64,000 bases of DNA from an uncultured Solirubrobacteraceae bacterium (lineage in GTDB: Bacteria > Actinomycetota > Thermoleophilia > Solirubrobacterales > Solirubrobacteraceae): the NCBI GenBank assembly GCA_964588985.1, contig CAZPQW010000005.1:64001-128000 (forward strand). The letters are read 5' to 3'. Positions 31,191 through 49,032 of this stretch are shown here, one piece after another. The notes below the pieces were generated by a model, which was not told the origin of the DNA, ran no database searches, and was given only the letters and a program-made list of their open reading frames with translations. Positions within the stretch are counted from its first letter, which is position 1, and each line of letters starts with the position of its first letter. Made by a program: the position numbers and the translations under genes.

Positions 31191-32534
31191 TCAGGTCAAT
31201 TGATGTGCAAGCTCGCGGAAGCGCTCCCCCCGCTCCTCGAAGTTGACGAAGAAGTCATAGCTTGGGGCCGCCGGCGAGAGCAGCACGACGCCACCGCCCT
31301 GCGCCAGCCCACGCGCCAGCTCGACCGCCTCGGCGAGATCGGACGCTTCGACTGCCCGCTCCTGCTCCGCCCCAGCCTCGCGAGCGGATGCGATGAGCCG
31401 CGGGCCCGTCGACGGCACCCCGATCACCGTGGCCCCGCGCTCGGCGAGCGCCCGCCCGAGCCCGGCGTAGTCCTGCCCCCTGTCCTGCCCACCGCCGATC
31501 AGCACCACGTCGCGTCCCGGAAAGCTGGCGAGCGCCGCGAGCGCGGACTCGGGCGTGGTGGAGATCGAGTCGTCCACCCACGTGACACCGTCGCGCTCCA
31601 GCACCGTCTCGAGTCGATGCGCGAGCGGACGGAAGTCGGCTAGCGCGTGCGACAGATCGGCAGGGAGCTCGACGCCGAGCGCCTCCAGCGCCGTCAGCGC
31701 CGCACACAGGTTCAGTGCGTTGTGCTCGCCGTGCAGCGGCAGATCGGCGCGCGCGAACTTCGACTCGCCGTGGAGAGTGATCCCACCATCGGCCGGCTCC
31801 CAGCCGCCGGGCACGCCGAACACCTCCACCTCGATGTCCGGATGGGCGCGCGCGATCCGCTCCTCGCGCTCGCCGACGACGGCCACGCGCACCCCGGGCA
31901 GTCCGAGGATCCGCAGCTTGTCCGCGCGGTAGGCGTCCTCGGAGCCGTGCCAGTCGGTGTGCTCGCGAAAGAGGTTCGTGATCACGGCCACCTCGGGTCC
32001 GGTGCTCAGATCGGCGAGCTGGTAGCTGGACAGCTCGACCACGGTCACCTCCGCGACGTCCTCGTCGAGCAGGTCGAGTGCGGGGACGCCGATGTTGCCC
32101 GCGAGCTGCACCGTCCGCCCCGCGGCGCGAGCCACGTGCGCGGCGAGCGCGGCGGTGGTGCTCTTGCCCTTCGTGCCCGTCACCCCGATCACGCCATCGC
32201 CGCCGCGCTCGGCCAGCCACAGCGCGGTGGCGGTCGTCACGGGCAGACCGGCATCGCGCAGCGCGATCAGCTCCGGCCGGTAGATCGACACGCCGGGCGA
32301 GCGCACGAGCACGTCGCAACCCGCGAGCGCAGCCGACGCCTCCCCGCTGCTCACCACCTGCACGGCCGGGGTGCGGAGCGTCTCGCCCACGTCCTGCAGG
32401 GGAGGCTCGTCGAAGACCGCGACCGCTATCCGCGCCGACGGCAGGCACTTGGCGAGCTGCGCGGCGAGCGATGTGATCTCCCGTCCGGCGCCCCACACGC
32501 CGATGCGGGCGCCGTCAAGCTCCGAGAACCGCAC
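31191..32534 (-). CDS. murD: UDP-MurNAc-L-Ala--glutamate ligase (MurD2 type)
   Basis: VRSPGVS, GVTGTKGKSTT, ELSSYQ, DDSISTTPES, LLSPAAPSYD; coupled to murL. Confidence 0.9.
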   Translation of the reverse strand: MRFSELDGARIGVWGAGREITSLAAQLAKCLPSARIAVAVFDEPPLQDVGETLRTPAVQVVSSGEASAALAGCDVLVRSPGVSIYRPELIALRDAGLPVTTATALWLAERGGDGVIGVTGTKGKSTTAALAAHVARAAGRTVQLAGNIGVPALDLLDEDVAEVTVVELSSYQLADLSTGPEVAVITNLFREHTDWHGSEDAYRADKLRILGLPGVRVAVVGEREERIARAHPDIEVEVFGVPGGWEPADGGITLHGESKFARADLPLHGEHNALNLCAALTALEALGVELPADLSHALADFRPLAHRLETVLERDGVTWVDDSISTTPESALAALASFPGRDVVLIGGGQDRGQDYAGLGRALAERGATVIGVPSTGPRLIASAREAGAEQERAVEASDLAEAVELARGLAQGGGVVLLSPAAPSYDFFVNFEERGERFRELAHQLT

Positions 32535-33888
32535 GCACGTCCGCCATCAGAGAAGCCGGCACCTCATGGTTGTCGCTCAGCGCGAGCACCGCCTCCGGGT
32601 CGCCCTCGCCGGGCGCGTATCGCGGCAGCACCTCCTCCACGAGACGCCGCACGACCGCGTGCGCGCTCCAGCGCTCGTCGCGTGCGAGCAGGCGGATCGC
32701 GGCGAGGCTCTCCTGCTCCTCGCCGACGCACTCGAACGGCTTGTGCCCGCCGGTCGCGGTGAGCAGCGCGAAGCCGTCGAACTGCCGCTCGTCGTCCAGC
32801 AGATCGCTCCCGAAGATCTCGCGCAGATGCTCGGGCGTGGAGAACGGCGCGAGCGCGAGGAACACGAACCGGCACTTGGGGCAGTCGCGGCACCACGACG
32901 CCGCGCGCAGCGCCGGGTCGAGCCGGAAGATCGCGTTGCAGCTGGTGAACGCCGCGTGGTAGGCGTCCATGCGCGCGAACGCGCGCGCGATCGCGAGCTC
33001 CGAGGCGGGGCGCAGCAGCGAGAACACCCGGAGTCCCGGCGCCACCTCGGCGACGGCCGCGCTCAGCAGCCGCTCGGCGCGCAGGCCCTTGCTGAACTGG
33101 TGGTTGACGTCCACGCCGTCCCAGCTCACGTTGCCGGCGGAGGCGGAGCGCTCGTTGGCCATCGCCACCGCGTCGAACCCGTTCAGCGCGGCGCTCAGCA
33201 GCGCCACGCACGACACGATCGCGGTGATCGGCACGTGACCGTTGATCGCGCCAGCGTCGTTGAGCGCCCTCAGCCCCGGGTCCAGGCGACGGCGCGCGAG
33301 CAGGTGAGGAAGCCCCGCCACCGCGACCGTGCGCGCGATCGGAGGTGCGTCGCCGATCGAGAACAGCGCCGGCTCGCGCCCGGAGCGGCGGGCGATCTCG
33401 ATCGCCACCGCGGAGTCCTTGCCACCGCCAACCGGCACGAGCATCCGCCCCACGTCCTCATTTTCAGGAGCGACAGGCACATAGCGACTCCCGTCCGCCC
33501 GAAAGCGCGGTCGCGGCAGCGCCGCCAGGTTGTTCGTGTACGCCAGCTCGCCGAGGCCCTCCGAGTAGAGCGCTTCGAGCAGGGCGCCCGTCGCGGGTGG
33601 CGGCGCGCCCGTCTCGAGGCTCACGCTCGTCGGCAGCGCGGTCTTGAAGTAGCTCACCCCGGCGACCCAGTGCAGCAGCGACAGCAGCCCGTCCACGCGC
33701 TCGACGTCGGCGTCGGTCAGCTCGCCGTCGATCGGCAGGTCGAACTCCTCCACGAAGAAGATCTCCTCGTCGAGCGCGTAGCGGAGCGTGACGCGTCCAC
33801 GCGCGTCGAGCTCGCGTGCAAGGAAGCGAAACGCTCCAAACGCCGTCGGGTCGAACAGCGCGGGGGCACGCTTGGCGTCGGCTGCCAT
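32515..33888 (-). CDS. murL: UDP-MurNAc-L-Ala-L-Glu epimerase MurL
   Basis: VSYFKT, PVGGGKDS (PP-loop), NGHVPIT, ANERSAS, VNHQFSK, WCRDCPKCRFVFL, KPFECVGE; leaderless TACGCT-N6-ATG start. Confidence 0.82.
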   Translation of the reverse strand: MAADAKRAPALFDPTAFGAFRFLARELDARGRVTLRYALDEEIFFVEEFDLPIDGELTDADVERVDGLLSLLHWVAGVSYFKTALPTSVSLETGAPPPATGALLEALYSEGLGELAYTNNLAALPRPRFRADGSRYVPVAPENEDVGRMLVPVGGGKDSAVAIEIARRSGREPALFSIGDAPPIARTVAVAGLPHLLARRRLDPGLRALNDAGAINGHVPITAIVSCVALLSAALNGFDAVAMANERSASAGNVSWDGVDVNHQFSKGLRAERLLSAAVAEVAPGLRVFSLLRPASELAIARAFARMDAYHAAFTSCNAIFRLDPALRAASWCRDCPKCRFVFLALAPFSTPEHLREIFGSDLLDDERQFDGFALLTATGGHKPFECVGEEQESLAAIRLLARDERWSAHAVVRRLVEEVLPRYAPGEGDPEAVLALSDNHEVPASLMADVRAVLGA

Positions 33889-33923: not shown

Positions 33924-34535
33924 CTATGCGTACTCGAGATCGGGCTCGGGCTCGCCCGTGAACAGCCACGGCACGGCGTTGCCGATCACCTGACCGCGGA
34001 AGCGCTTGCGCGCCCCGTACACCACCCACGTCGTGTCCACCGCGCCGTAGGTCTCCTCCACGCGCAGCACGTCCGGGTATTCGCTCGCATAGTGCAGGTG
34101 GGTGAGGCCGGCGTGGTACTCGCCGGCGAGCAGGTGGCGCGCGACGACCGGCTTGGAGGGCTCGTCGATCAGCTCCTCCCAGCGGGTCAGGTCGGGGTAT
34201 CCGCGCGTCGCCGCCACGATCCCCATGCTCCTCGGGGGATCCGGCGCGTCGTGGCGGACGAGCAGCGCGAGCTCCTTGGTGGGGTAGATGAACGTGTCGA
34301 TCACGAACACCTCTTTGTAGTAGCGCTCGGTGACGAGGTGGACCTGCGTGTGCGCGCTGCACTGCACGAGGAACGTGTCGGGCTCGTCGCGCACGCGATG
34401 GATGTCGCCGAGCAGGTCTTCCGAGAGCTCGATCCGCACCGACGTCAGGCCCTGCAGCTCGAGGTAGCGCTTCAGCGCGTTCTCGTGACAGGTGCCCGTC
34501 GGCCCCAGCGTGATGAACGTCGGCTGCGCGCTCAT
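33924..34535 (-). CDS. BacA/AerD-like prephenate decarboxylase (prephenate dehydratase fold, no ACT domain)
   Basis: TLGPTGT start, ARHLLAGEYHAGLTH, TTWVVYG; 203 aa, similar in size and layout to Bacillus BacA as recalled. Confidence 0.65.
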   Translation of the reverse strand: MSAQPTFITLGPTGTCHENALKRYLELQGLTSVRIELSEDLLGDIHRVRDEPDTFLVQCSAHTQVHLVTERYYKEVFVIDTFIYPTKELALLVRHDAPDPPRSMGIVAATRGYPDLTRWEELIDEPSKPVVARHLLAGEYHAGLTHLHYASEYPDVLRVEETYGAVDTTWVVYGARKRFRGQVIGNAVPWLFTGEPEPDLEYA

Positions 34536-34822
34536 CGCTCCTCCGCGATCGCCGCCATCAGCTCGTCCTCCATCCTGCAGGTGGCATCGATCAGCAGCTC
34601 GAACAGCGCAGCGGTGAAGTCCGCCGGGAGCCTCACCTCCGCGCCGCGATCGAGATAGCGCGCACGGACCTGCTCGACGCGGCCGGGCTGCATCATCGGG
34701 ATGTCGTTCGCGCGCTTGTGGAGGGCTATCTCGCGGCAAGTCTCGAAGCGCTCGCCGAGCAACCGCACGATCTCCTCGTCGAGCTCGTCGAGGCGCGCGC
34801 GAAATGGCTCGAGGCCGCTCAT
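34532..34822 (-). CDS. AroQ chorismate mutase, PapB/CmlD (4-amino-4-deoxychorismate mutase) type
   Basis: RARLDELD...HKRANDIPMMQPGRV...LIDATCRMED. Confidence 0.8.
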   Translation of the reverse strand: MSGLEPFRARLDELDEEIVRLLGERFETCREIALHKRANDIPMMQPGRVEQVRARYLDRGAEVRLPADFTAALFELLIDATCRMEDELMAAIAEER

Positions 34823-35781
34823 TCGTCGCGCCCTCCGAGCAGGCCGGTCGCGAACGCGTGACTGCACGCGGCGAGCGTGTCGAGGTCGTAGCCGCCCTCC
34901 TGCACCACGCACACCGGCAGCTGCGAGTCGGCCAGCAGACGTCCGATCTCCGCGAAGATCGCCGGGCTGAACGTCCAGCAGCCATGCGGATCTCCACGCA
35001 CCGTGTCGTAGCCGAGCGACAGCACGAGCACGGCCGCGGACTGCGCGATCTCGTCGATCGACGCCGCCGCGGCGGCGAGGTAGCTGGCTTCGCTCGGAGC
35101 CTCGGCGAAGGCGACAAGCCGCTCGCGAGAGCTCAGCGGCTCGACCGTTCCCGTCGGCGAGTTCGCCACCGGCGAGGCGTGCAGCGAGTGCAGGCTCGTG
35201 TCGCTCATCAGCGCGGCGATCGCGGCGGTGCCGTTCGGGTAGTGGATGTCGAGGTCGAGGATCCCGATCGGTCCGACGCCCCCCTCGCGCAGCGTCTGCA
35301 CGGCGGCGGCGGCGTTGTTGAGGTAGCAGTAGCCGCCGAGCCAGCCCGGGCCGGCGTGATGTCCCGGCGGGCGACACAGCGCGTAGGCGTAGTGCGAGCC
35401 GTCGAGGATCCGGCGCGCGGCCGTGATCGCCGTGCGCACTCCCTCATACGCCACCGCCGCCACGCCCGCGCTCACGGGCGTGTCCGGGGCCATGCCGGGA
35501 GCGGCGAAGCGCTCCATCAGCACCGGCTCGCCCGAGCGGACGCGCATAAGCGCCTCGAGGTAGTCGCGCTCGTGCAGCGCGCTCACCGTCTGGCGCACCT
35601 GCTCGAAGGCCGCGTCGGCCTGGGCGGTCAGAACACCCGGATGCTGCGTCAGGCCAGCGCGCAGCTCCGACAGCCGCCTGTCGTGATCGCGGCCCTCGAG
35701 CCTGCGCCCGTGCGCGTCGAGGATCCACGGCTGGGCGTGCGCCGAGCCCGGACGTTGCTCGATCGCGAGCATCTCGCTCAT
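34819..35781 (-). CDS. Histone-deacetylase / acetylpolyamine amidohydrolase family enzyme
   Basis: RPPGHHA, GGYCYLNNAA, DLDIHYPNGT, SLGYD, QEGGY. Confidence 0.88.
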   Translation of the reverse strand: MSEMLAIEQRPGSAHAQPWILDAHGRRLEGRDHDRRLSELRAGLTQHPGVLTAQADAAFEQVRQTVSALHERDYLEALMRVRSGEPVLMERFAAPGMAPDTPVSAGVAAVAYEGVRTAITAARRILDGSHYAYALCRPPGHHAGPGWLGGYCYLNNAAAAVQTLREGGVGPIGILDLDIHYPNGTAAIAALMSDTSLHSLHASPVANSPTGTVEPLSSRERLVAFAEAPSEASYLAAAAASIDEIAQSAAVLVLSLGYDTVRGDPHGCWTFSPAIFAEIGRLLADSQLPVCVVQEGGYDLDTLAACSHAFATGLLGGRDE

Positions 35782-36293
35782 GGGATCCGCCTGCGCATGC
35801 GCGGACCGTTTGCCGTGAAGCCGTTGCTCAGGTAGAAGCCCTCGGTCGCGGAGAAGTTCGAGAAGCTCTCGCGCGGAAGCCCCACCTCGATGCGTTCCAT
35901 GTGTCGGCCGCGCGTGAGCTCGACGAGCGCCTCCACCAGTCCCGCCCCGACCGCCTGCCCGCGCCAGGCTGGATCGACCCACAGGTCCTGGATCAGCGCA
36001 TAGGACCCCGGCACGTGGATCGCCATCTGCCAGCTCGCCGCGAGCACGCCCACGATCGCCACACGCGCCTGCGCCACGAGCACCGCGCCCTCCCAGGGGC
36101 TTGCGATCAGCGTGCGCGTCGCATCCTCCATCGCCGCGGTGCTCGTCGGCGTCCCATCGAGCTCCAGCAGCAGGGCCCTCACCGCACCGGCGACCGCCTC
36201 GACGTCGTCGCCGGTGGCGGCGCGCACGCTCCATCCGAGACTCGAAGCCGCATCCGAAGCGGACGCCTGCACCTCGGCGGCGTGCTCACTCAT
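35778..36293 (-). CDS. GNAT family N-acyltransferase
   Basis: IQDLWVDPAWRGQAVGAGLV motif A, FYLSNGF; ATGA overlaps at both ends. Confidence 0.85.
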   Translation of the reverse strand: MSEHAAEVQASASDAASSLGWSVRAATGDDVEAVAGAVRALLLELDGTPTSTAAMEDATRTLIASPWEGAVLVAQARVAIVGVLAASWQMAIHVPGSYALIQDLWVDPAWRGQAVGAGLVEALVELTRGRHMERIEVGLPRESFSNFSATEGFYLSNGFTANGPRMRRRIP

Positions 36294-38470
36294 AACGCTC
36301 CCGCGGCCGCCATGTGCGAGTGCGGCTCGCGCTCCACGACCCACGCGTCGGGGGAGTCGCTGCCGGTCACCGCTCGCGCGACCGCCGCCATCGGCGCGCG
36401 CGCCTTCAGCAGCAGCTCCTCGAACTCCTGCTCGGGGTCGGACTGGGTGACGATCGCGCCGCCAGCACCGATCGTCGTCAGGCCGGGGCGCATCACGATC
36501 GTGCGGATCACGATGCTCAGGTCGACGCTCCCGTCGAGCCCGAAGTAGCCGAGCCCGCCCGAGTACACGCCGCGGGCGACGCGCTCGATGTCGTCGATGA
36601 TCTCCATAGTGCGCAGCTTCGGCGCTCCGGTCATCGAGCCGCCGGGGAAGCACGCGCGCACGCAGTCCACCGGCGTGCGCCCCTCGGAGAGCACGCCGTT
36701 GATCGTGGACGTCATCTGGTGCACCGTGCGGTAGCGCTCGCCGGCCATGAACTCCGACACGCGCACGCTGTCCACCTCGCACACGCGGCCGAGGTCGTTG
36801 CGCAGCAGGTCCACGATCATGAGGTGCTCGGCGAACGTCTTTTCGTCGTTCATCAGCTCGGTGCGCAGCGCCTCGTCGACGACGGCGTCGCTCGCGCGCG
36901 GCGCGGTGCCCTTGATCGGACGCGCCTGCACGTTGCGGTCGCGGTCGACCGACAGGAAGCGCTCGGGCGAGGAGCTGACGACGGCCATCTCCCCGAGCTT
37001 GAGGTAGGCGGCGAACGGCGCGGCGTTGCTGCGACGCAGTCCGCAGTAGAGCTCGAGCGGGTCGGGGCTCGCGGCCGTGGAGATGTGGTCGGTGAGACAC
37101 ACCTCGTAGGACTCGCCCGCCGCGAGCGCCGCCTGACAGCGCGCGATGTCGGCGAGATACTGGCGGCGTCCGCGGCCGCAGTGGAACACGACGGGCGCGC
37201 CCGCATCGTCCCCGTCGGTGGCGCCGGACTCCGGCGTCGATCCGTCATCCTCCCGCTGCTGAGACGCCGAGGAGATCATCTCGCTCACGATCGCCTCGGT
37301 CTCCACGAGCCAGCGCTCCGCGTCGTGCCCGTCCTCCGCGCACAGCGCGAACAGGTGCGTGCGCCCGGCGACGTGATCCACCGCGATCACGCGATTGGCG
37401 AGCATCATCACCGCGTCCGGCATGTCCGAGCGGTGGACGTTGGGTGAGCCGCAGTCGGCCTTGCACTCGTAACCGAGATAGCCGACGAAACCGCCGAGCA
37501 AGCCGCGCGCCACACCCTCCGGCGGCTGCACAGCGCCGAGCGCGAGTTCGCGGTCGAGCACGTCGAAGATCGAGGCGTGCTCCACGACGCTCGTGCCGGC
37601 GCGATCGATCGTCACCGAGGCGGACTCCACGTCGTATTCGAGCACGCAGCGCTCCTCGCCCATCGTCGTGCCCATGTAGGAGCTGCGCGCGAGGCGCGTC
37701 GGCGCGTCGGCGCTGTCGAGCCAGAAGGCGTGATCGGCGTCGGCGAACAGGCGTCGGAAGACCGCCTCGGTCGGAGCCTCGCCCTCGATCGTGCGCACCT
37801 TCAGGCGCATCCGCGAGTCGCCCACGTGGCGAACGGTCGGCCGCGCGGAGGGCGTCACGAGCCGCCTCACTCCGGGCGAGCGAGTCGGCCTGTTCGCACG
37901 CGCCATCTTGTAGAAGTTCTCGATCAGCGCGGGGCCGTGCTCGGTCGAGATCGACTCGGGGTGGAACTGCACGCCCCAGATCGGCCGGTGGCGATGCTCG
38001 ATGCCCATCACCACGCCGTCCTCCGTCCATGCCGTCACGCGTCCCTCCGGTCCCATCTGGCCGGTTACCGCGAGCGAGTGGTAGCGCACGACCGAGAAGT
38101 CCTGGGGAATCCCCTCGAACAGGCCGCTGCCGAGATGGCGCACGTGACTCACGCGGCCGTGCATCGGCAGCGGCGCCGCCCCAACCTCACCGTTGAGCAG
38201 CCGGCCGAGCCCCTGATGGCCGAGGCAGATCCCGAGGATCGGCACGTCGCTGAAGCGCAGGATGTCCGAGCACACGCCGAAGTCGTGCCAGCGATCGGGG
38301 TGCCCTGGGCCGGGGGAGATGACGATCGCGTCGAAGTCCCAGCGCGACAGCGCTCCCCACGAGACGGTGTCGTTCTGGATCACGATCGGCTCCTCGCCCG
38401 ACACGGCGGCGAGGATGTGAAACACGTTGTACGTATAGGAGTCGTAGTTGTCCACCAGCAGCGTTGTCAT
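36290..38470 (-). CDS. pabAB: Fused PabA-PabB aminodeoxychorismate synthase (PapA/CmlB type)
   Basis: DNYDSYTYN, SPGPG, GICLGHQ, QFHPES; then SSPERF, PIKGT, EHLMIVDLLRNDL, FPGGSMTGAPK. Confidence 0.93.
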   Translation of the reverse strand: MTTLLVDNYDSYTYNVFHILAAVSGEEPIVIQNDTVSWGALSRWDFDAIVISPGPGHPDRWHDFGVCSDILRFSDVPILGICLGHQGLGRLLNGEVGAAPLPMHGRVSHVRHLGSGLFEGIPQDFSVVRYHSLAVTGQMGPEGRVTAWTEDGVVMGIEHRHRPIWGVQFHPESISTEHGPALIENFYKMARANRPTRSPGVRRLVTPSARPTVRHVGDSRMRLKVRTIEGEAPTEAVFRRLFADADHAFWLDSADAPTRLARSSYMGTTMGEERCVLEYDVESASVTIDRAGTSVVEHASIFDVLDRELALGAVQPPEGVARGLLGGFVGYLGYECKADCGSPNVHRSDMPDAVMMLANRVIAVDHVAGRTHLFALCAEDGHDAERWLVETEAIVSEMISSASQQREDDGSTPESGATDGDDAGAPVVFHCGRGRRQYLADIARCQAALAAGESYEVCLTDHISTAASPDPLELYCGLRRSNAAPFAAYLKLGEMAVVSSSPERFLSVDRDRNVQARPIKGTAPRASDAVVDEALRTELMNDEKTFAEHLMIVDLLRNDLGRVCEVDSVRVSEFMAGERYRTVHQMTSTINGVLSEGRTPVDCVRACFPGGSMTGAPKLRTMEIIDDIERVARGVYSGGLGYFGLDGSVDLSIVIRTIVMRPGLTTIGAGGAIVTQSDPEQEFEELLLKARAPMAAVARAVTGSDSPDAWVVEREPHSHMAAAGAL

Positions 38471-40140
38471 GAGACCTCCTCCAGGCCGATTCCGCGCGCG
38501 CCGCGGTCGAGCAGCGTGTGCACCACCTGCTCCACCGGAGCGCTGCGCTCCTCCTCCAGGTACCAGCGAGCGAAGTGCGTCACGTAGCGGGCGAGCGGGC
38601 CGGCGTCGAGGCGCTCGACCGCGAGGCGCAGATGGCGGCGGTGCAGTTCCGCCTGCACGACCGCGAAGCGGTAATCCGGTTCCTCCGCCGGCCGATCCGC
38701 CAGCTCGTGCCCGCGACCCTCGTGCGCGCGCGCCTGCACCAGCTCCCACCCCGGGCTTTCGCGTGTGTCCAGCAGCTTGCCGGGATGGAAGTCCACGCGC
38801 GGGGTCACCGGGCGCGGCACGAAGTAGCCCAACGCCACCTGACCCGCGATCCGCTCCGCCGAGCCGAGCCGGCGCACGACGTCCTGCCCGCGCGGGTCCT
38901 GCTCGATCTGCTCCTGCAGCCGCTCGATCAGGTCGTCGATCAGCAGCGCCCCCTCCTCGCTCGAGGCGACCGCGCGCTTCTGGTGGGAGACCATCCCGTG
39001 GAAGATGTCGCCGGTCGGATGCATGCCTTCGCCGCCGGTGCTCATCAGGCGCGCCATCAGCTGGCGTCTGCAGGTGACGTGTGCGACCCACTCCGCACCG
39101 CACACCTGTACCGAGGTCATGCCCTCCAGGCCCGGCGCCGCCATCCAGTACGCGAGCGCGCGCATGTGCTGGGTGGGCAGATCGTCGCCGCGCACGAGCG
39201 GGAATTCGTCGAAGTCCTCGCGCTCGGTTGGGTAGATCACCACGCCGTCCTCGCGCCGGCGCAGCAGCCCTTCGCGCAGGCCGCACGCGGTCAGCTCGGC
39301 CGCCTCGGAGAGGAAGTCCGACTCGAAGAACACGCGGTCGAAGGCGATTCCCAGCCGCTGCAGCGTCTTGCGCTGCCCCGCGATCACCCACGCGCGCGTC
39401 TTGTACCAGAGCTCCAGCGCCTCGCGGTCCCCGGAGAGCACTCGCCGCAGCAGCTGGTCGGCGTCGTCGTCGCGCATCGTCAGCTCGCGCGTGAGGGAGT
39501 CCTCGGGCTGCTCGGTGGAGCCACCGTTGAAGGATCGGCCCGCCGCGACGTACTCGGCGTAGCAGCAGCCCACGAAGTGGTCGCTCTTCTCGTTGCGGTC
39601 CGGCCACGCCTGCGCGTGGCGGCCGCTCTTCATCACCCCGGCCATCGCCTCGCCCATGCTGCGCCCGGCGTCTGAGATCAGCGCGCGGCGCTCGACCTGG
39701 CCGCCGGCCTGGGTCAGGGCCGCGGCGAGCGCGTTGCCGATCGCGAGGTTGCGCAGGTGCCCGACGTGCAGCGCCTTGGTCGCGTTGGCGTCCCAGAACT
39801 GCACCGAGAAGCGTCGCCCGCGCGCGAGGTCGGAGAGCCGCTCCTCGCCGCTGTCGCCTTCCCGCAGCGCGGTCCCCTGAGTTTCGATCCAGTCGTCTGA
39901 CAGCCGCAGCTCCACGCCCGCGTCGGTGCGCGTCGCGCGCTCTACCCACGGCTCGCGTTCGATCCGCTCGAGCGCGTCGAGCGATGCCGCGTCATCGCGC
40001 CAGACGGGTGAACGTGGGACGAGCTTGACGTCGAAGCGGGCGTTCGGACGCAGCGGCGTGCGGGCAGCCCACAGTCCGCCCGTCTCGCCCTGCTCGGGCA
40101 GTTCCTCGAAGTAGTCGAAAAGGTTGGTGGCCGTCAGCAT
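38467..40140 (-). CDS. Arginyl-tRNA synthetase paralogue with altered specificity residues
   Basis: NATKALHVGHLRN (HIGH), FDRVFFES, HGMV, shortened DALR-like domain; KMSKS loop degenerate, no C-terminal Met. Confidence 0.85.
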   Translation of the reverse strand: MLTATNLFDYFEELPEQGETGGLWAARTPLRPNARFDVKLVPRSPVWRDDAASLDALERIEREPWVERATRTDAGVELRLSDDWIETQGTALREGDSGEERLSDLARGRRFSVQFWDANATKALHVGHLRNLAIGNALAAALTQAGGQVERRALISDAGRSMGEAMAGVMKSGRHAQAWPDRNEKSDHFVGCCYAEYVAAGRSFNGGSTEQPEDSLTRELTMRDDDADQLLRRVLSGDREALELWYKTRAWVIAGQRKTLQRLGIAFDRVFFESDFLSEAAELTACGLREGLLRRREDGVVIYPTEREDFDEFPLVRGDDLPTQHMRALAYWMAAPGLEGMTSVQVCGAEWVAHVTCRRQLMARLMSTGGEGMHPTGDIFHGMVSHQKRAVASSEEGALLIDDLIERLQEQIEQDPRGQDVVRRLGSAERIAGQVALGYFVPRPVTPRVDFHPGKLLDTRESPGWELVQARAHEGRGHELADRPAEEPDYRFAVVQAELHRRHLRLAVERLDAGPLARYVTHFARWYLEEERSAPVEQVVHTLLDRGARGIGLEEVS

Positions 40141-40148
40141 CTTGGTGA

Positions 40149-40168
40149 GGTCGGCGGTGGAGCCGACC
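40149..40168 (-). other. 7-bp hairpin between tRNA 3' end and synthetase start
   Basis: GGTCGGC-tccacc-GCCGACC, no U-tract. Confidence 0.55.
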
Positions 40169-40170
40169 GA

Positions 40171-40243
40171 TGCACCAGCCGGGGCTCGAACCCGGATCGA
40201 CGGCGTTTAAGGCCGCTCCCTTAACCGATTAGGGCACTGGTGC
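40171..40243 (-). tRNA. Atypical tRNA, anticodon UAA, short (4-nt) variable loop
   Basis: GCACCAG-TG-CCCT-AATCGGTTA-AGGG-A-GCGGC-CTTAAAC-GCCGT-CGAT-CCGGG-TTCGAGC-CCCGG-CTGGTGC-A: all four stems pair; U8, A14, G18G19, U33, TTCGA present; CCA not encoded. Confidence 0.9.
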
Positions 40244-40389: not shown

Positions 40390-41817
40390 TTGAGCATGCA
40401 CGAGGAGCAGCACATGTCTCTGTCTCTCCCCCCTGGCCCACGCATGCCGAGCGCGCTTCAGGCGCTCGGCTGGGCGCTGCGACCGCTGCCGTTCATGGAG
40501 CGCTGCAACAACCATTACGGTGAAATCTTCACCCTGCGCGTTCGTCGCGGTCGTCCCTGGGTTGTCCTCACGGATCCGGCGGATGTCAAGCTGCTGTTCA
40601 CGACCGACGCGAGCGCGGTGCGCGCGGGAGCGGTCGCGGCCAGCCCGGTACTCGAGCCGCTGCTGGGCTCACGGTCGGTGATGCTGCTCGACGAGCCCGA
40701 GCACATGACACACCGCAAGCTGATGCTGCCCGCGTTCCGCATCACGCGCATGAGCGCCTATGACAACCTGATCACCCGCGTGGCCCGTCGAGAGATCTCG
40801 AAGTGGCCGATCGGCGAGCCGTTCGCGCTGTGGCCGCGCATGCAGGCGATCACCACAGAGGTGATCCTCCGCGCCGTGTTCGGCCCTCTGGAGGAGCCCC
40901 GGTTGGAGCATCTGAGCGGCCTGCTGAGACAGATGACCGCGCAGCTGAACGATCCGCGCCGCCTGGCGATCCTGACCGCCGTGGGCCCGGGGCGACTCTC
41001 TCACAGCGAGCGACTTCGCTCGGTGATGCGCCCGGTGGAGAGCGCGGTGCTCGAGGAGGTGCGCCGACGGCGTGCTTCACCCAACGGCGCAGCCTCGCAG
41101 GACATCCTCGCGATGCTCGAGCGCGCACACGACCAGGGTGGCTCGCCGATGGACGAGAAGCAGGTGCGCGACGAAGTCCTCACACTGCTCTCCGACGGTC
41201 CGACCGCCACCTCGCTCGCGTGGGCATTCGAGTGCCTCATGCGCCATCCCGAGAAGCTCGCCCGACTGCGCAAGGAGGCCCTCGCGGGTCGCGAGTACAG
41301 CTATGCGGACGCGGTCGCCAAGGAGACGCTGCGCCTGTGCCCGGTGGTGCCCCTGGTGATGCGCGAGCTGACCCAGCCGATGCGCATCCGCGGCTACACG
41401 CTGCCCGCGGGAGTCATCGTCGCCGCGGGCGTTTACCTGATTCACCGTCGCGAGGACATCTATCCGCAATCGCGCACTTTCCTACCTGAGCGCTTCCTCG
41501 ACCAGAACGCCCCCACCTACGCGTGGATTCCCTTCGGCGGAGGAGTGAGACGCTGCCTCGCGGCCAACTTCGCCCAGCTCACGATCAGGCGAGTGATGCA
41601 GACCGTGCTCACCGAGGTGGACCTGCAGGCGGTCTCCACATCCGGATCCGAGCACGCGGCGAGAAGCTCAGTCGCGTTCGTCCCCAACGAGCAGGCGATG
41701 GCGATCGTCACTCGACGGATCGGATCTCCCACCGACGAGCGGCTCGAGGATCCGGTCGGCGACGAGACCGAGCGAGCCGAGGGTCGAGAATCCGGGGCCC
41801 TGGCCGAGGCCGGCTAG
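40390..41817 (+). CDS. Cytochrome P450 with non-canonical I-helix
   Basis: PPGP, KETLR (ExxR), PERF, PFGGGVRRCLA heme ligand; I-helix LLSDGPTATSLAW; start may be a later ATG (MSLSLPPGP). Confidence 0.9.
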   Translation: MSMHEEQHMSLSLPPGPRMPSALQALGWALRPLPFMERCNNHYGEIFTLRVRRGRPWVVLTDPADVKLLFTTDASAVRAGAVAASPVLEPLLGSRSVMLLDEPEHMTHRKLMLPAFRITRMSAYDNLITRVARREISKWPIGEPFALWPRMQAITTEVILRAVFGPLEEPRLEHLSGLLRQMTAQLNDPRRLAILTAVGPGRLSHSERLRSVMRPVESAVLEEVRRRRASPNGAASQDILAMLERAHDQGGSPMDEKQVRDEVLTLLSDGPTATSLAWAFECLMRHPEKLARLRKEALAGREYSYADAVAKETLRLCPVVPLVMRELTQPMRIRGYTLPAGVIVAAGVYLIHRREDIYPQSRTFLPERFLDQNAPTYAWIPFGGGVRRCLAANFAQLTIRRVMQTVLTEVDLQAVSTSGSEHAARSSVAFVPNEQAMAIVTRRIGSPTDERLEDPVGDETERAEGRESGALAEAG

Positions 41818-43014
41818 CCCGGGCACCTGCAGCAGCGGGCGCACGCCGCTGAGCTCCAGGAATCGAGCCATGTTCACTTCTTCGCGTTTGTCGCCTTCCC
41901 AAAGCGGCCCGGTCACCCGTTCGATCTCGCGCCGCGCCGGATCGGACAGCAGACTGCGCAGCTGCTCGAGCAGATCGAAGCCGGTCGAGTTGATCACGTA
42001 GTCGTGGCGCGCCGTCTCGGCGCCCGCGACCGACTCGTAGTTGACGCACACCCCCTCGCCGTTCGGAGCGGACGCGATGCGCTCGACGCGCCCGAGCACG
42101 AAGCGACAGCGCTCGTCCCACGCGAAGCGCGCGAGACGCTCCGGCCCGAATACTCCGCGATCGGTGTGATTGATGAAGTCGCGACGCGTATCGACGCTGA
42201 GCGTCTCCCAGGCGACATTGTCGGGATTGGAGAAGACGCGATTCTCCAAGAAGCTCTCCAGCCGACTCAGAGGCAGATTGGAGGTGTACACCGATATGTA
42301 CGCGTCGGGACGCAGGTTGCGCACGAATTCGATGCAGCTGAGCGCGCTCTCCCCGCCACCCACGATCGCGATGTCGGAGCTCTGCTCGACCGGCGCGTGC
42401 GCGATCGCGATGCGCCCGCTGTCGCAGTCGAGCACGCGCTGCGCGATCTGGGGATCATGGGGGATGCCGCGATTGACCCCGGGGCCGGTCAGCGCGAACG
42501 CCCCGCACGCGTACTGGGACGCGGCGGGCGCACCGGCGACGTCCACGATCCAGCGTTCGCCGTCGTCGCTCAGCGACAGTCGTGCGACACGCCCGTTGAC
42601 GAGCGTCACTCCCTCGGTGGCGCGAGTGAGCACCCACGCAAGGTATGCGCCGTATTCGCGGCGCTGCACGGACGGTTCGCCGGCGTCCACCCAGCGTGAG
42701 TAGTCGCCTTTCTCGATCAGGTAGCGATGCCAGGAGAACGCCATCGACGCGATGTCCACTTCCGCTCCGGCGGAGCCGAACGCGCATGCGCTCTGGTACG
42801 GGTAGCCGACGTCTTTGGAGGGGGTGATCGCGAGCACCTCCCTGCTCGTGGTGATGCCGTTTCCGTCGACCCACGCGGCCGCCGGCCCGGTCGCCTCGAC
42901 GAGCGTCATCCTGATCGGACCCAGGCCGAGACTGTTGAGCACGTGCACCTTCATCGCGATCGCGGTGCCCTTGGCTCCGGCGCCGACGACGAGCAGGTCG
43001 GTGTTGTTCACCAC
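41668..43014 (-). CDS. MbtG/NbtG-like flavin-dependent lysine N6-monooxygenase
   Basis: VVGAGAKG, KDVGYPY, VGGGES, ENRVFSNP, TDRGVF, GLGQGPGFSTLGSLGLVADRIL; GTG start behind GGAGG. Confidence 0.85.
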   Translation of the reverse strand: MVNNTDLLVVGAGAKGTAIAMKVHVLNSLGLGPIRMTLVEATGPAAAWVDGNGITTSREVLAITPSKDVGYPYQSACAFGSAGAEVDIASMAFSWHRYLIEKGDYSRWVDAGEPSVQRREYGAYLAWVLTRATEGVTLVNGRVARLSLSDDGERWIVDVAGAPAASQYACGAFALTGPGVNRGIPHDPQIAQRVLDCDSGRIAIAHAPVEQSSDIAIVGGGESALSCIEFVRNLRPDAYISVYTSNLPLSRLESFLENRVFSNPDNVAWETLSVDTRRDFINHTDRGVFGPERLARFAWDERCRFVLGRVERIASAPNGEGVCVNYESVAGAETARHDYVINSTGFDLLEQLRSLLSDPARREIERVTGPLWEGDKREEVNMARFLELSGVRPLLQVPGLAGLGQGPGFSTLGSLGLVADRILEPLVGGRSDPSSDDRHRLLVGDERD

Positions 43015-43093
43015 GTCGCAGATCCTCCGGTCGAAGCTTGTCGTGCTCTCGTGCAAACGGCACGCCGAGTTATAGGGAGAAGGGCGACGTGGC

Positions 43094-43672
43094 TCAATGT
43101 GAGACCGGAACGCTCCCCCCGCAGGTCGGGCAAACCACCGTGTTCGCGTCGGCATCCGGCGTGGACGGATCGCTCCCGTCGTTTCCATCACCGGCTTTGA
43201 GCGCACGGCGGCGGCCGCGCAGTTCCGCGCGGAGGTCCGCGACCGACAGTTTGTCGGCGCTCGCTCGCGCCAGCCAGTGGTCCTGGATCGCGACATCCAG
43301 CGCCGCGACCGTCGCGTGGTGACTCCAGGAGAGATTCTCCCTACGTCGGGAGATGTCGAAGCGCGACGCGACGTACACCATGTTCATCAGGGATTGGACG
43401 TCGTATCCGGTGAGCTTCACCGCTCTCGTGTAGCGCTCGCCGAAGCGCGCGTTGCCGTAGTTGATCCAGTCGCCCAGCCACCATTGGCTGCAGCGACCGA
43501 TCTCGCCGAAGCGACGCCCCAACGCCGACCACTCGGCCAGGCCGACCTCGCCGCCGGGAACCCAGCCCACCTGTGTCAGCTCTGGAGTAGTCCGCGCCGG
43601 CCTCACATGAGGTCGTTCACGCGCAGTCGCTTGCCCGGCACCGTCTGTCGTCTGTGACAAGGCGGAAGTCAC
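43094..43672 (-). CDS. LmbU family transcriptional regulator
   Basis: SQWWLGDWINYG, YVASRFDISRRRENLSWSHHATVA, QDHWLARA. Confidence 0.85.
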   Translation of the reverse strand: MTSALSQTTDGAGQATARERPHVRPARTTPELTQVGWVPGGEVGLAEWSALGRRFGEIGRCSQWWLGDWINYGNARFGERYTRAVKLTGYDVQSLMNMVYVASRFDISRRRENLSWSHHATVAALDVAIQDHWLARASADKLSVADLRAELRGRRRALKAGDGNDGSDPSTPDADANTVVCPTCGGSVPVSH

Positions 43673-43864: not shown

Positions 43865-45166
43865 TCAGTCGTTCGCGGTGACGGTCTCGAGCAGCTCCGC
43901 GAAGCGCTCACGCGAGCGCGCGCGGCGCGTCGGCAGGTGTTCGCTCGGCACACCGTCCGCGGGTGGCGCGTAGCCGTTGAGGATGTGGCGCGCGACGGAC
44001 TGGCGGTGCACCTCGTCGGGACCGTCGTAGATGCGCGCGGCGCGCGCGAAACGATACATCTGCTCGAGCGGCAGGTCGGTGGAGTAGCCGAGCGAGCCGT
44101 GCAACTGCAGCGCCCGATCGACCACGTCGTGGAGCACCTTCGCGCCGTAGAACTTGATCAGCGCGACGTCGGTGCGCGCGGCGCTCGCGCCCTGTGTGTC
44201 CATCACCCACGCGGCGTGCAGCGTCATCAGGCGTGCGGCCTGCATCTCGGCGGCGCTGTCGGCGATCCAGTTCTGCACGGTCTGCTTCTGCGCGAGCAGC
44301 GAGCCGTGGGCTTCTCTATATGTGGCGCGCTCGCACATCATGTCGAACGCGCGGCGCGCGACCCCGAGCCAGCGCATGCAGTGGTGGATGCGCCCGGGCC
44401 CGAGGCGGTGCTGGGCGAGCACGAAGCCCTCGCCCTCGCCGCCGAGCAGCGCCTCCGGGCCGACGCGCACGTCGCTGTAGAGGATTTCCGAGTGCCCGCC
44501 GTAGCCGCCGAAGTGCTCCGCGGGGTGCTCCATCGTGGGGACGTCGCGCACGATGTCGACGCCCGGCATGTCACTCGGGACGATGAACATGGACGCGCGC
44601 TGCGACGGTCGCGCGTCGGGGTTGGTGACGGCCATCACGATCAGGAAGTCGGCGATCGAGCCGTTGGAGGAGAACCACTTCTTGCCGTCGAGCACCCAGC
44701 CGTCGCCGTCGCGCACCGCGCGCGTCTTCAGCTGCGTGGGGTCGGAGCCCGGCGTGTGCGGCTCGGTCATCGAGAACGCGCTGCGCAGGTCGCCCGCGAG
44801 CAGCGGGTGCAGCCAGCGGTCCTTCTGCTCGGGCGTGCCCGCCATAGCGAGGATCTCCGAGTTGCCGGAGTCCGGCGCGGCGTTGCCGAACGCGAGCGGC
44901 GCGATCGGCGAGGTGCCGAGGATCTCGTGCATCAGCCCGAGCTTCACCTGCCCCATCCCCTGGCCGCCGAGCTCGGGCGGCAGATGCGTCGCCCACAGCC
45001 CGCGCGCCTTGACCTGCTCCTGCAGCGGCGCGATCGCACGGCTGAGGCCATCGAGACCCAGCTCCGGCCAGATCGCCTCCAGCGGCCAGATCTCGGTGCG
45101 CACGAACTCCGCCATCCAGTCGAGCTGCTCCTGGTAGTCGGCGTCGGTGGAGAAGTCCCAGCTCAT
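43865..45166 (-). CDS. Acyl-CoA dehydrogenase
   Basis: APDSGNSEIL, SAFSMTEP, GKKWFSSN, RLGPGRIHHCMR, RIYDGPDEVH. Confidence 0.93.
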   Translation of the reverse strand: MSWDFSTDADYQEQLDWMAEFVRTEIWPLEAIWPELGLDGLSRAIAPLQEQVKARGLWATHLPPELGGQGMGQVKLGLMHEILGTSPIAPLAFGNAAPDSGNSEILAMAGTPEQKDRWLHPLLAGDLRSAFSMTEPHTPGSDPTQLKTRAVRDGDGWVLDGKKWFSSNGSIADFLIVMAVTNPDARPSQRASMFIVPSDMPGVDIVRDVPTMEHPAEHFGGYGGHSEILYSDVRVGPEALLGGEGEGFVLAQHRLGPGRIHHCMRWLGVARRAFDMMCERATYREAHGSLLAQKQTVQNWIADSAAEMQAARLMTLHAAWVMDTQGASAARTDVALIKFYGAKVLHDVVDRALQLHGSLGYSTDLPLEQMYRFARAARIYDGPDEVHRQSVARHILNGYAPPADGVPSEHLPTRRARSRERFAELLETVTAND

Positions 45167-45708: not shown

Positions 45709-46548
45709 ATGGCTGGGCCCGGACCATTGGAGATGTCGCTCCTGCCGGGAGCGCGCGAGCTGCTCGACGCGCACGCCGCGGCGCTGCCCCAGCGCGACGA
45801 TCTTTGCGGCGCGTTCTGCGGCGCGCTGGCGCTGAGCGCGGCGGGGTTCCGCGAGCGCGGCGGGGAGCCCGTAGATCAGGACGCGGTGGGGCTGGCCGCG
45901 GGGAGCATCGTGTCGACAGCCGGCGCGCGCGATCCGGGCACGCTCCCGCACGGCGAACCGGGCCGGCGCGACTACCGCCTGGCGATCCCCGAGATCGAGG
46001 ACGCCGACGTGTCCGGCACGACGTGCTCGGGTGTGATCGACGCGATCGCGGAGCTCTCCGACGGCGCGCTGGAGGCGATCCCTTTCAGCGGCCCGTGGAC
46101 GGCGGAGACGCTCGGCGGCCTCTACGACGTGGCCGCCGAGCTGAAGCGCCCGGTGACGTTGATCGCGAACTTCGCCACCCACCACCTGTGGGGCGGGTCC
46201 GCTCGGTTCGACCAGCTGCTGGGCTATCTGCTCGACGGCGAGCGAGCAGGGCCTGAGCCGGACTGGCGCGTGGGCCACTTCGCGTGCGTGTTCGGACGCG
46301 TGCGCGGGCCGCGCGGGAACCTTTACGGCGTCGCCGACACCTACCCCGCGCTCGGCGACCATGGCGTGCACATGCAGCCGCAGGAGCGTCTCGCGGCGGC
46401 GCTCGAGCGGCGCGACATGCCGGCGGGCGGGATGATCGTGGTGGCGTTTGCCGACGACGCGGGCGCGATCCGCGCGGGCGCGGGCGCCGTGGGACTGAGC
46501 GAGGGCCTGTGGGACAACGGGACCGTGACGCAGGCGACGCTCGGGTGA
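45709..46548 (+). CDS. Papain-like (C39/phytochelatin-synthase-like fold) putative cysteine hydrolase
   Basis: PQRDDLCG...GHF...ADTY candidate Gln/Cys/His/Asp set. Confidence 0.55.
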   Translation: MAGPGPLEMSLLPGARELLDAHAAALPQRDDLCGAFCGALALSAAGFRERGGEPVDQDAVGLAAGSIVSTAGARDPGTLPHGEPGRRDYRLAIPEIEDADVSGTTCSGVIDAIAELSDGALEAIPFSGPWTAETLGGLYDVAAELKRPVTLIANFATHHLWGGSARFDQLLGYLLDGERAGPEPDWRVGHFACVFGRVRGPRGNLYGVADTYPALGDHGVHMQPQERLAAALERRDMPAGGMIVVAFADDAGAIRAGAGAVGLSEGLWDNGTVTQATLG

Positions 46549-47858: not shown

Positions 47859-49032
47859 CGTCGTGCTCGAGCGGCTGCTCGAGGGGATCGAGCGAGAGAG
47901 TCCGCGCGCCGTGGAGCTGCGCCACCGGCTGCACTCAGGGCCCGAGTTGGCGGGCGCCGAGAAGCGGACCGCGGCGATGGTCGCGGCGGAGCTGCCGGTG
48001 GCGAGCGAGACGGCGGCGGCAACAGGGCTGCTCGCCCGGGTGGGACCGGCCGATGGCACGCCGATCGCGGTGCGCGCGGAGCTGGACGGGCTGCCGGTGC
48101 GCGAGCGCACGGGCGCGGCGTTCAGCGCGAGCGGCGAGACGATGCACGCGTGCGGGCACGATGTGCACATGGCAGCGCTTGTGGCGCTCGCCCGCGCCGC
48201 ATACTCAATTGAGGAGGATCTACCCGCCCCGCTGCTCGCGGTGTTCCAGCCGAGCGAGGAGGTGCACCCCTCCGGTGCGAAAGCGCTCGTCGAGGGCGCG
48301 CTCGCGGACGCGGCGCCGAAGGCGGTCCTCGCCGCGCACGTCCATCCGGAACTGCCGTGGGGCGAGGTGGCGCTCGACCCTGGGGCTGTGAACGCGTCGT
48401 TCGACGGGTTCGAGATCGTCGTCGAGGGCGAGCCCTCACACGGCGCCTACCCGCACCTGGGACGCGACCCGATCCTCGCGCTCGCGCAGGTGGTGGTCGC
48501 GCTGCACGCGCAGGTCGCGCGGCGGATGGACCCGATGCATCCGACGGTGCTGACGGTGGGCGTGGTGGAGGGCGGGAGCACGGAGAACGTGATCCCCGAG
48601 CGCGCGAGCGCGCGGGGCGCGCTGCGGTCGCTGCGGGCGGAGGACCGCCTGGCGTTGCGTGAGCTGGTTGAGGAGGTCGTGACGGGTGTGACAGCCGCGC
48701 ACGGCTGCCGCGGCGGCGTGTCGTTCGTGGCGGGGGAGCCGGTGTTGGAGAACGACCCGCGCATCGTGGCGGAGGCGTGCGGGCTGCTCGCCAGTGCCGG
48801 CCTTGCACCAGCCCCCGAGTGGCGCTCGTGCGGGTCGGACGACTTCGCCTTCTTCGGCGCGCTCGCGCCGGTGGCGATGGCCTTCGTGGGGCTCGACGGC
48901 GCGGCGGGCTTTCGGTCGCGGCCGCTTCACCACCCGGAGCTGCTCCCGCCCGACGAGGCGGTTGATGCGATCGCGCGCGTGCAGGCTGTGCTGTATGTGG
49001 CGGCGGCGCACTCCTTGCGGCAAGCCGACTGA
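47842..49032 (+). CDS. M20 family amidohydrolase
   Basis: HSGPEL, MHACGHDVH, FQPSEE, HGAYPH, SDDFAF, LHHP. Confidence 0.92.
   Translation: MPRSTDVVLERLLEGIERESPRAVELRHRLHSGPELAGAEKRTAAMVAAELPVASETAAATGLLARVGPADGTPIAVRAELDGLPVRERTGAAFSASGETMHACGHDVHMAALVALARAAYSIEEDLPAPLLAVFQPSEEVHPSGAKALVEGALADAAPKAVLAAHVHPELPWGEVALDPGAVNASFDGFEIVVEGEPSHGAYPHLGRDPILALAQVVVALHAQVARRMDPMHPTVLTVGVVEGGSTENVIPERASARGALRSLRAEDRLALRELVEEVVTGVTAAHGCRGGVSFVAGEPVLENDPRIVAEACGLLASAGLAPAPEWRSCGSDDFAFFGALAPVAMAFVGLDGAAGFRSRPLHHPELLPPDEAVDAIARVQAVLYVAAAHSLRQAD

Follow-up and report, generated by a model that had tools for sequence, protein, structure and literature searches.

We analyzed a 64-kb window (the whole stretch of DNA; G+C content of 68.5%) from an uncultured Solirubrobacteraceae bacterium, whose genome of 3.41 Mb in 48 contigs is called G000 below; the window lies on its contig C5. 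On its minus strand, at 33924 to 40243, the window carries a cassette that begins with a tRNA gene, continues with a paralogue of arginyl-tRNA synthetase (ArgRS), and runs on into genes predicted to make an amino acid. This cassette is real, conserved, and, as far as our literature search shows, undescribed: the search turned up neither this cassette nor any report of an ArgRS paralogue linked to a tRNA of its own.

The tRNA gene (40171 to 40243, minus strand) is the only one called by ARAGORN in the 64 kb. It has 73 nucleotides (nt) and the anticodon UAA, and it matches Rfam RF00005 over the full model (1 to 71) with 65.2 bits for a gathering score of 29. The ATG of the ArgRS-like class I synthetase paralogue (557 amino acids [aa], 38467 to 40140, minus strand), recognized with TIGR00456 and hhalign, lies 30 nt downstream. 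ARAGORN, Rfam, and the listing of open reading frames (ORFs) thus confirm what a preliminary description of this DNA had reported, namely a minus-strand unit with a complete tRNA(UAA) and the paralogue 30 nt on. On the same strand follow, by Pfam and TIGR00553 matches, a fused PabA-PabB type 4-amino-4-deoxychorismate (ADC) synthase, PapA-like (726 aa, 36290 to 38470), and, by Pfam matches, a GNAT N-acetyltransferase (171 aa, 35778 to 36293), a Zn-deacetylase of the HDAC/acetylpolyamine amidohydrolase type (320 aa, 34819 to 35781), and an AroQ-type mutase (CM_2; 96 aa, 34532 to 34822) that is a PapB-like ADC mutase candidate. The last gene (33924 to 34535) encodes a 203-aa protein of no named family, a candidate prephenate-decarboxylase-like enzyme on the strength of an ESM Atlas lead. 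The GC3 frame plot and the start-codon listing place five ATGA start/stop overlaps between these genes (38470/38467, 36293/36290, 35781/35778, 34822/34819, and 34535/34532); the GNAT start at 36293 follows from its ATGA overlap, with 36227 as the alternative. A terminator scan gave no terminator-like site from the tRNA down to 31 kb, and a scan of the locus for consensus promoters gave nothing useful.

Divergent from the tRNA, on the plus strand, lies a cytochrome P450 gene (40390 to 41817, Pfam p450; start at 40390 or 40618). Beyond it, on the minus strand, a flavin N-monooxygenase of the lysine N6-hydroxylase (NbtG) type (41668 to 43296, from PDB and Pfam matches; start at 43296 or 43056) forms an optional module. 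As called, these two ORFs converge with an overlap of 150 nt (41668 to 41817); one of the two ends may be overcalled, because the domain matches stop short of the overlap. A search of sequencing runs for the cassette found no RNA run that holds it: the sole RNA-labelled run is probably DNA and, like two other sequencing runs, contains contigs of relatives only.

Conservation and distribution of the cassette

A scan of one genome per species found relatives in 247 genomes, and the locus counts given here use the best 80 loci (60 to 91% identity), all of them metagenome-assembled Solirubrobacterales. Genes were counted by tblastn with the window's proteins, the paralogue being present in 80/80 by construction. 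The ADC synthase gene adjoins that of the paralogue in all 80 loci, P450 is found in 73, GNAT and deacetylase in 71 each, the mutase in 69, and the N-monooxygenase in 53, and the 203-aa gene is adjacent in 47. By their counts (73 and 53 of 80), P450 and N-monooxygenase belong to the unit, whose extent the preliminary description had drawn too narrowly, missing the conserved P450 and the NbtG-like N-hydroxylase. The P450 gene stands downstream of the mutase gene or, in divergent orientation, upstream. All-against-all clustering of ~1,000 predicted genes from the loci yielded no further widely shared family.

In 72 of the 80 loci, the paralogue comes with a short-arm tRNA of the same family; co-occurrence of such a tRNA and the same enzymes with homologues of the paralogue was a check proposed in the preliminary description. 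This tRNA occupies one of three places: just upstream of the paralogue, between mutase and P450 on the other strand, or on the far side of P450. Seven of the eight loci without the tRNA are contigs cut near the gene; the eighth, L052, has full flanks and no tRNA (an ARAGORN call of a 92-nt tRNA-Gly there was rejected as a poor false call). Among the 72 loci the anticodon is UAA in 67 and AGU in 4, and one copy has an 8-nt anticodon loop. At L044:6716-6788 the 8-nt loop reads CTTAAAAA (ARAGORN "taaa"), and the D-loop is one base shorter. Two Conexibacteraceae-type loci (L039:10187-20242 and L047:10223-20291) contain two ArgRS-like copies and two deacetylase genes with a single tRNA, of anticodon AGU and loop UUAGUAA.

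The 203-aa gene goes with the cassette: five of five cassette genomes whose locus lacks it have it elsewhere, and a search of five cassette-free members of the genus found it in none. The N-monooxygenase was recovered in only one of the five genomes whose locus lacks it and is therefore considered optional. Of 291 good genomes of the order, 44 have the cassette (3 by a distant paralogue only and 1 by a broken piece), from 2 of 5 families and 5 of 74 genera; within the genus it occurs in 12 of 19 good genomes, and the cassette tRNA has a full-length match in 11 of 21. When the phylum was sampled by 400 further genomes, no cassette match was obtained. Such a patchy distribution is what an accessory function would show, and the cassette is more than a chance association, since the set recurs in 80 loci and the tRNA shows compensatory changes.

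The tRNA and the ArgRS-like paralogue

The cassette tRNA is under structural selection, with compensatory changes in its cloverleaf. Across 22 distinct copies, 99.1% of the cloverleaf cells are paired and 7 pairs have changed on both sides; none of 500 shuffles reached such a pairing, and slid controls dropped to 31 to 49%. Little or no variation occurs at A73, G18G19, U33, and A37, in the acceptor stem, or in the T-loop, and A73 together with an intact acceptor stem is found in all 23 aligned copies. The window's own copy has the discriminator A73 and a variable loop of 4 nt. It does not encode CCA, which is encoded in none of the genome's tRNAs.

As the preliminary description had argued, this is not an ordinary tRNA-Leu: at 73 nt it has a short variable arm, compared with 84 to 88 nt for the five other tRNA-Leu of the genome, and its closest relative in its own genome is tRNA-Arg(CCU), with which it has the variable loop and the T-arm in common. 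It carries U20 and A35, in place of the A20 and C35 of tRNA-Arg, the positions that we take to be the chief identity marks read by ArgRS. A canonical long-arm tRNA-Leu(UAA) of 87 nt (C1:258520-258606) and a canonical argS (contig C4, 390 bits), both of which that description had proposed to look for, are present elsewhere in the genome. In the same ARAGORN run on G000, a 97-nt "tRNA-???" with a four-base anticodon (C27:31243-31339) and two odd tRNA-Arg(gcg) calls (C4:150012-150105, 94 nt, and C39:15065-15142, 78 nt) are probably false.

The paralogue likewise departs from a normal ArgRS, as had been claimed, both by scores far below the argS cut-offs and by altered pocket positions. It scores 83.9 bits against TIGR00456 argS (cut-off, 261.65) and 72.3 bits against NF002446 (cut-off, 399). 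Its Pfam match to tRNA-synt_1d is limited to 27.9 bits over 66 residues (aa 109 to 174), no ArgRS N-terminal or DALR domain was matched in the Pfam scan, and the ArgRS matches in PDB span only aa 105 to 302. Profile comparison reaches further. With hhalign, the profile of the 26-member family and the ArgRS of the genome itself align at 97% probability across 390 columns (78 to 545 against 90 to 513). The paralogue, of similar length, is thus colinear with ArgRS through both the catalytic and the C-terminal (anticodon-binding) region. The HVGH motif at 125 to 128 is invariant in the 26 family sequences. Glu148 of yeast ArgRS (1BS2) aligns to Gln114, and Asn153 to Asn119. The ArgRS motif T-Y-x-x-x-D aligns to T-Q-H-M-R-A, in which Tyr becomes Q324 and Asp becomes A328; Q114 and Q324 are invariant in the family. 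In yeast ArgRS, E148, Y347, and D351 are, we assume, the residues that hold the guanidinium group. Judged from these alignments, positions of the arginine pocket are replaced in the paralogue.

Thus, the pair resembles canonical ArgRS and tRNA-Arg in its colinear domains, its HVGH motif, its similar length, and a tRNA nearest to tRNA-Arg(CCU), whereas it differs by the sub-cut-off argS score, the altered pocket, and U20 with A35. As far as the sequences can tell, tRNA and enzyme have changed in the way one would expect if the pair had moved away from arginine. The claim of a dedicated, coinherited tRNA/paralogue pair tied to an ADC-based amino acid pathway is supported as an inference.

The design also extends beyond the 80 loci. 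Paralogues at 33 to 38% identity in other Solirubrobacterales (L084:7929-9724, L086:4987-6795, and L087:7932-9802) form a sister family, which has its own tRNA just upstream, with the anticodon UCU, and operons that continue with a methyltransferase and an ATP-grasp ligase, plus an AMP-binding enzyme in L087. Since this family again comes with its own tRNA, "ArgRS-like plus own tRNA" appears to be a recurring design in metabolite-type operons. In a library clustered at 50% identity, 202 representatives match the paralogue below 1e-30.

Biosynthetic enzymes and a proposed role of the charged tRNA

The ADC synthase carries the Pfam domains GATase, Anth_synt_I_N, and Chorismate_bind and exceeds the cut-off of TIGR00553 pabB (339.3 bits, cut-off 328.4). 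With three chorismate-binding genes in the genome, it is an extra copy and not the sole one for folate synthesis. The mutase (Pfam CM_2, 70.4 bits) is a candidate ADC mutase by sequence; the cassette thereby has enzymes of both the PapA (ADC synthase) and the PapB (CM_2) type, the substrate of the latter being a prediction. No PapC-type dehydrogenase domain was found among the conserved cassette genes. The deacetylase (Pfam Hist_deacetyl, 151 bits) has acetylpolyamine amidohydrolases as its nearest solved structures (1e-32). The P450 gives 181 bits against Pfam p450. The N-monooxygenase matches the L-Lys monooxygenase NbtG (PDB 4D7E, E value of 1.8e-63 over aa 100 to 518) and Pfam Lys_Orn_oxgnase (PF13434, 40.6 bits for a threshold of 21.3), a member of the NbtG/IucD family by sequence. 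By these matches, the nearest relatives of the tailoring enzymes act on side-chain amines of lysine- or polyamine-like substrates.

The downstream gene list of the preliminary description stands for the ADC synthase, GNAT, deacetylase, CM_2 mutase, and ATGA joins, while its "BacA-like decarboxylase" is retained as a lead only, because the 203-aa protein has no Pfam or NCBIfam match, even at an E value of 10. The N-terminus of this protein reads TLGPxGTCHE, and the lead comes from the ESM Atlas, where the feature neighbor of rank 4 is a "Prephenate decarboxylase" cluster with PF00800 (0.96, 203 of 256 features shared). A six-frame PF00800 search of the genome recovered only pheA and not the 203-aa gene, and a profile search of the 203-aa family against the PDB sequences gave nothing. 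The set resembles the PapABC and BacA/AerD/SalX routes in its ADC synthase and AroQ-type mutase, with a protein of ~200 aa in the position of the decarboxylase; it differs in that PapC is missing and that PF00800 gives no match to the 203-aa protein, which aligns by hhalign to the genome's own PDT domain with only 7% probability. In our literature search, no BacA-type enzyme using 4-amino-4-deoxyprephenate was described. An amiclenomycin lead proved unfruitful; the main text of a stravidin preprint (10.1101/2025.10.09.681295) contained no pathway terms.

We propose a model in which the cassette makes an amino acid and loads it onto its own tRNA, as follows: (i) the fused PabAB-type enzyme would form 4-amino-4-deoxychorismate, (ii) which the small AroQ mutase would convert to 4-amino-4-deoxyprephenate, (iii) to be decarboxylated by the 203-aa protein, and (iv) a general aminotransferase would then yield an amino acid of the 4-amino-(dihydro)phenylalanine type. 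The product would resemble lysine or arginine because of its ring amine. Next, (v) the acetyltransferase/deacetylase pair might mask and unmask this amine, and P450 and, where present, the lysine-hydroxylase-like flavoenzyme may tailor the amino acid. Finally, (vi) the ArgRS-derived enzyme, with its rebuilt pocket, would esterify the amino acid or its tailored form onto the cassette tRNA. A cationic 4-amino-(dihydro)phenylalanine, as a lysine or arginine mimic, would fit a re-specified ArgRS. The cassette tRNA probably descends from tRNA-Arg and is without the marks read by the normal ArgRS; the pair would therefore be insulated from arginine charging. The charged tRNA would most likely serve as an activated donor or carrier in specialized metabolism and is unlikely to be a general decoder of UUA. 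Because its anticodons correspond to rare codons, a charged tRNA that strayed into the ribosome might cause little damage. That the orthogonal pair charges a cassette-made, lysine- or arginine-like amino acid for specialized metabolism is, in our judgment, an evenly balanced proposition. With the same middling confidence, we see the cassette as an accessory, horizontally patchy unit of some Solirubrobacterales that unites a private pair with the pathway for its amino acid.

Several points weigh against this proposal. The tRNA keeps elongator features (G18G19, U33, A37, TTCGA, and a 7-nt anticodon loop), and its anticodon UAA is constant in 67 loci, which would suit ribosomal use too. TTA codons in the cassette genes of relatives fall mostly in non-Leu columns (7/21 at Leu, compared with ~0.75 to 0.8 for other Leu codons). 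The GNAT looks like an ordinary acetyl-CoA enzyme (Pfam Acetyltransf_7 and Acetyltransf_1, an RGQAVG loop of the acetyl-CoA type, and 2R1I as the best PDB match). The role given to the 203-aa protein rests on the Atlas lead, without confirmation from hhalign or Pfam, and the amino acid itself is a prediction from gene content. Moreover, in Pfam scans of the nine conserved parts, no Fem/L-F-transferase, CDPS, LanB/PEARL, or DUF2156 domain was found, the rest of the genome not having been searched. The same holds, with the same limit, for a VlmA-type user of aminoacyl-tRNA, of which there was none among the Pfam matches of the conserved proteins.

Precedents for such a use of a charged tRNA differ in their parts. 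In the valanimycin cluster, the seryl-tRNA synthetase VlmL is reportedly a cluster-encoded paralogue that feeds aminoacyl-tRNA to secondary metabolism, with an N-hydroxylase in the cluster; our cassette likewise has an N-hydroxylase beside its cluster-encoded synthetase. The tRNA-dependent pathways (VlmL, CDPS, Fem, and PEARL) employ ordinary tRNAs, standard amino acids, and a recognizable transferase, whereas the cassette has a private tRNA, an amino acid that is apparently home-made, and no recognizable transferase. Staphylococci have a non-proteinogenic tRNA-Gly for FemXAB, onto which the usual GlyRS loads an ordinary amino acid. The cassette tRNA, as proposed here, would similarly be an extra tRNA kept for use outside translation, but it is linked to a synthetase paralogue and a biosynthetic operon.

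The tRNA might, alternatively, not be the acceptor of a new amino acid: a standard residue could be passed from it to an ADC-derived amine, or the paralogue could be an MshC-like ligase with the tRNA as a cofactor. ArgRS needs its tRNA to form the adenylate, and MshC is the precedent for a ligase. With no recognizable transferase in the cassette, a synthetase-like enzyme could form the final bond; an ADC-derived arylamine or cyclohexadienylamine would be a plausible acyl acceptor, and the deacetylase-type amidohydrolase could cleave such an amide. We nevertheless think this unlikely. The replaced arginine-binding positions make a standard Arg donor improbable, the C-terminal region that is colinear with the anticodon-binding domain is complete in the paralogue, and the intact acceptor stem with A73 in 23 copies is as expected if the 3' end is charged.

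TTA codons and the question of code expansion

The preliminary description called the cassette pyrrolysine-like. The operon layout justifies the term: like pylTSBCD, the cassette combines a dedicated tRNA, its own synthetase, and amino acid enzymes in one operon with a patchy, accessory occurrence. The components do not, as no PylRS and no PylB/C/D were found in Pfam and NCBIfam scans of all cassette proteins, and the anticodon is UAA, not CUA. PylRS is a class II enzyme, tRNA-Pyl reads the UAG stop codon, and PylBCD start from lysine; here, by contrast, a class I ArgRS derivative goes with a sense anticodon (UAA or AGU) and a predicted route from chorismate via ADC, and no conserved in-frame target codons were found at the partial genome coverage available.

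A man-made system comes near in another way. In PMC12631008, pyrrolysine and selenocysteine alone are named as natural additions to the code, and an "autonomous" Escherichia coli of the Schultz group is presented that combines PapABC with an orthogonal pair for p-aminophenylalanine. Like that strain, as depicted there, the cassette would use an ADC synthase and a mutase to make an amino-aromatic amino acid, with a host aminotransferase finishing it and an orthogonal pair charging it. According to the same source, the engineered strain relies on MjTyrRS with an amber suppressor tRNA, and PapC aromatizes (PMC12631008). Compared with this account, the cassette has no PapC and a 203-aa protein instead, its pair is ArgRS derived with a sense anticodon, and it adds acetylation/deacetylation, a P450, and an N-hydroxylase.

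Code expansion in nature would mean here that EF-Tu delivers the charged tRNA and that the amino acid enters at UUA (ACU in the AGU clade), ambiguously or at few sites. Besides the layout shared with pylTSBCD, this reading draws on the full elongator-like cloverleaf, with its strictly kept 7-nt anticodon loop, and on the anticodons UAA, AGU, and UCU, all of which match rare codons of this genome. TTA is indeed its rarest codon, as had been stated, with 38 occurrences in 556,950 codons sampled, the next rarest being ten times commoner; AGA is the fourth rarest and ACT the ninth. There are 22 TTA codons in ~186,000 codons of cassette genes, and none is at a conserved position. In the window, the ADC synthase gene has as its last codon (36293 to 36295) the sole in-frame TTA of the cassette, which overlaps the GNAT start (TTATGA) and is not shared by relatives, and a search for a hidden, TTA-bearing small ORF between 31 and 43.4 kb found no other. 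In 27 gene families from the loci, the columns of TTA sites (n = 20, several shared by descent) contain 19% Leu in the other sequences, for 75 to 78% with the five other Leu codons. Many of these TTA sites of the loci lie in the ADC synthase's variable linker, and the pattern, a small oddity, agrees with TTA persisting only where the sequence is unconstrained.

To look beyond the cassette, G000 was compared with 1.2 Mb of G218, which bears the cassette, and with two cassette-free genomes (400 kb each). Of 15 distinct TTA sites of G000 with an orthologue, 11 align to Leu only, 1 to Leu or Met, and 3 to other residues. TTA in non-Leu columns as a general pattern was therefore not upheld genome-wide, nor was the expectation that TTA would stand at conserved non-Leu columns (12/15 sites at Leu). 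The four TTA sites of G218 show 0/4 alignments to Leu, and none of 16 sites is common to the two genomes (0/12 G000 sites and 0/4 G218 sites, at partial coverage). In the cassette-free genomes, 4/6 TTA sites are at Leu, too few to decide. In G000, another chorismate-binding gene (C23:1105-2566) has two TTA codons (codons 86 and 393), for which the G218 orthologue has ACC and CTG. The genome-wide picture is one of ordinary Leu usage of TTA.

These results bear on code expansion from both sides: TTA is seldom at Leu in the cassette genes of relatives (7/21) and in G218 (0/4), but the sites in G000 are mostly at Leu, none is shared between G000 and G218, and no cassette gene has a conserved TTA, the single one in the window included. 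By pattern search, a normal long-arm tRNA-Leu(UAA) is retained alongside the cassette tRNA in 5/5 genomes; its loss from cassette genomes, which weak BLAST matches had led us to suspect, was rejected, the long-arm gene being present in all five. The cassette is absent from 7 of the 19 good genomes of the genus, and its anticodon varies between clades that have the same enzymes. Most copies of the tRNA have C38 and hence no A36-A37-A38 context, which is needed for i6A37 on tRNAs reading UNN codons. The reassignment of UUA put forward in the preliminary description thus finds no support, in view of the retained tRNA-Leu(UAA), the patchy cassette, the variable anticodon, and the missing conserved TTA. 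We consider entry of the amino acid through the ribosome quite unlikely, with the reservation that rare target sites could be missed because the comparison took in only about one-third of a single partner genome. It would be a bolder and still less probable claim that this is a third natural code expansion, in which an ArgRS-derived pair inserts a chorismate-derived cationic residue at UUA (ACU in one clade) in few proteins; that such a residue would be of the 4-amino-(dihydro)phenylalanine type, possibly N-hydroxylated, is an equally slim possibility.

It is very improbable that the paralogue is a self-resistance copy of ArgRS in an inhibitor cluster, with the tRNA as a chance neighbor or the integration site of an island: the cassette is patchy and island-like, and a resistant synthetase copy is common in clusters that make synthetase inhibitors, but a paralogue with 83.9 bits for a cut-off of 261.65 and a changed pocket could hardly replace ArgRS, and the non-canonical tRNA moves with the cassette in three arrangements, shows compensatory evolution, and is missing from the cassette-free genomes of the genus (full-length match in 11/21).

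Some genes lie beside the cassette without belonging to it. Directly 3' of it (31191 to 33888, minus strand) are a MurL-like gene (NF041275, 424.7 bits, below the cut-off of 700) and a MurD-type ligase gene (TIGR01087, 312.9 bits), a pair that resembles the MurD2/MurL L-Glu ligase/epimerase pair of xanthomonads. A link to the cell wall was dropped, as these are neighbors in only 17 and 15 of the 80 loci, respectively, all close kin. On the other side, an acyl-CoA dehydrogenase-like gene (43865 to 45166) is near the cassette in 16 loci, and genes for DUF6885 (253 bits), a glutamine-synthetase-like protein, and an M20 peptidase stand in a row at 45727 to 49032 (plus strand). A PQQ-type beta-propeller protein of ~520 to 560 aa is encoded after the cassette in 25 loci (e.g., L010, L012, L039, and L065).

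Biological meaning of a proposed private pair

To our knowledge, pyl is the only natural operon to encode the synthesis of an amino acid along with a private tRNA/synthetase pair. The cassette does likewise with unrelated parts: its synthetase derives from the class I enzyme ArgRS, its tRNA, which has a sense anticodon, derives from tRNA-Arg, and its chemistry, as the gene content predicts, starts from chorismate. If the pair charges a home-made amino acid, as we propose, it would be a natural example of an orthogonal pair evolving from a housekeeping one, and tRNA positions 20 and 35 together with the pocket residues of the enzyme would point to the first changes when a pair turns private. 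It would then offer new orthogonal parts for synthetic biology and a direct test of whether nature ever captures rare sense codons; should the amino acid, against our expectation, enter proteins, this would be the first natural sense-codon system with its own biosynthetic operon. For the Solirubrobacterales, the pair would represent a new tRNA-dependent metabolic route in a hardly cultured soil order.

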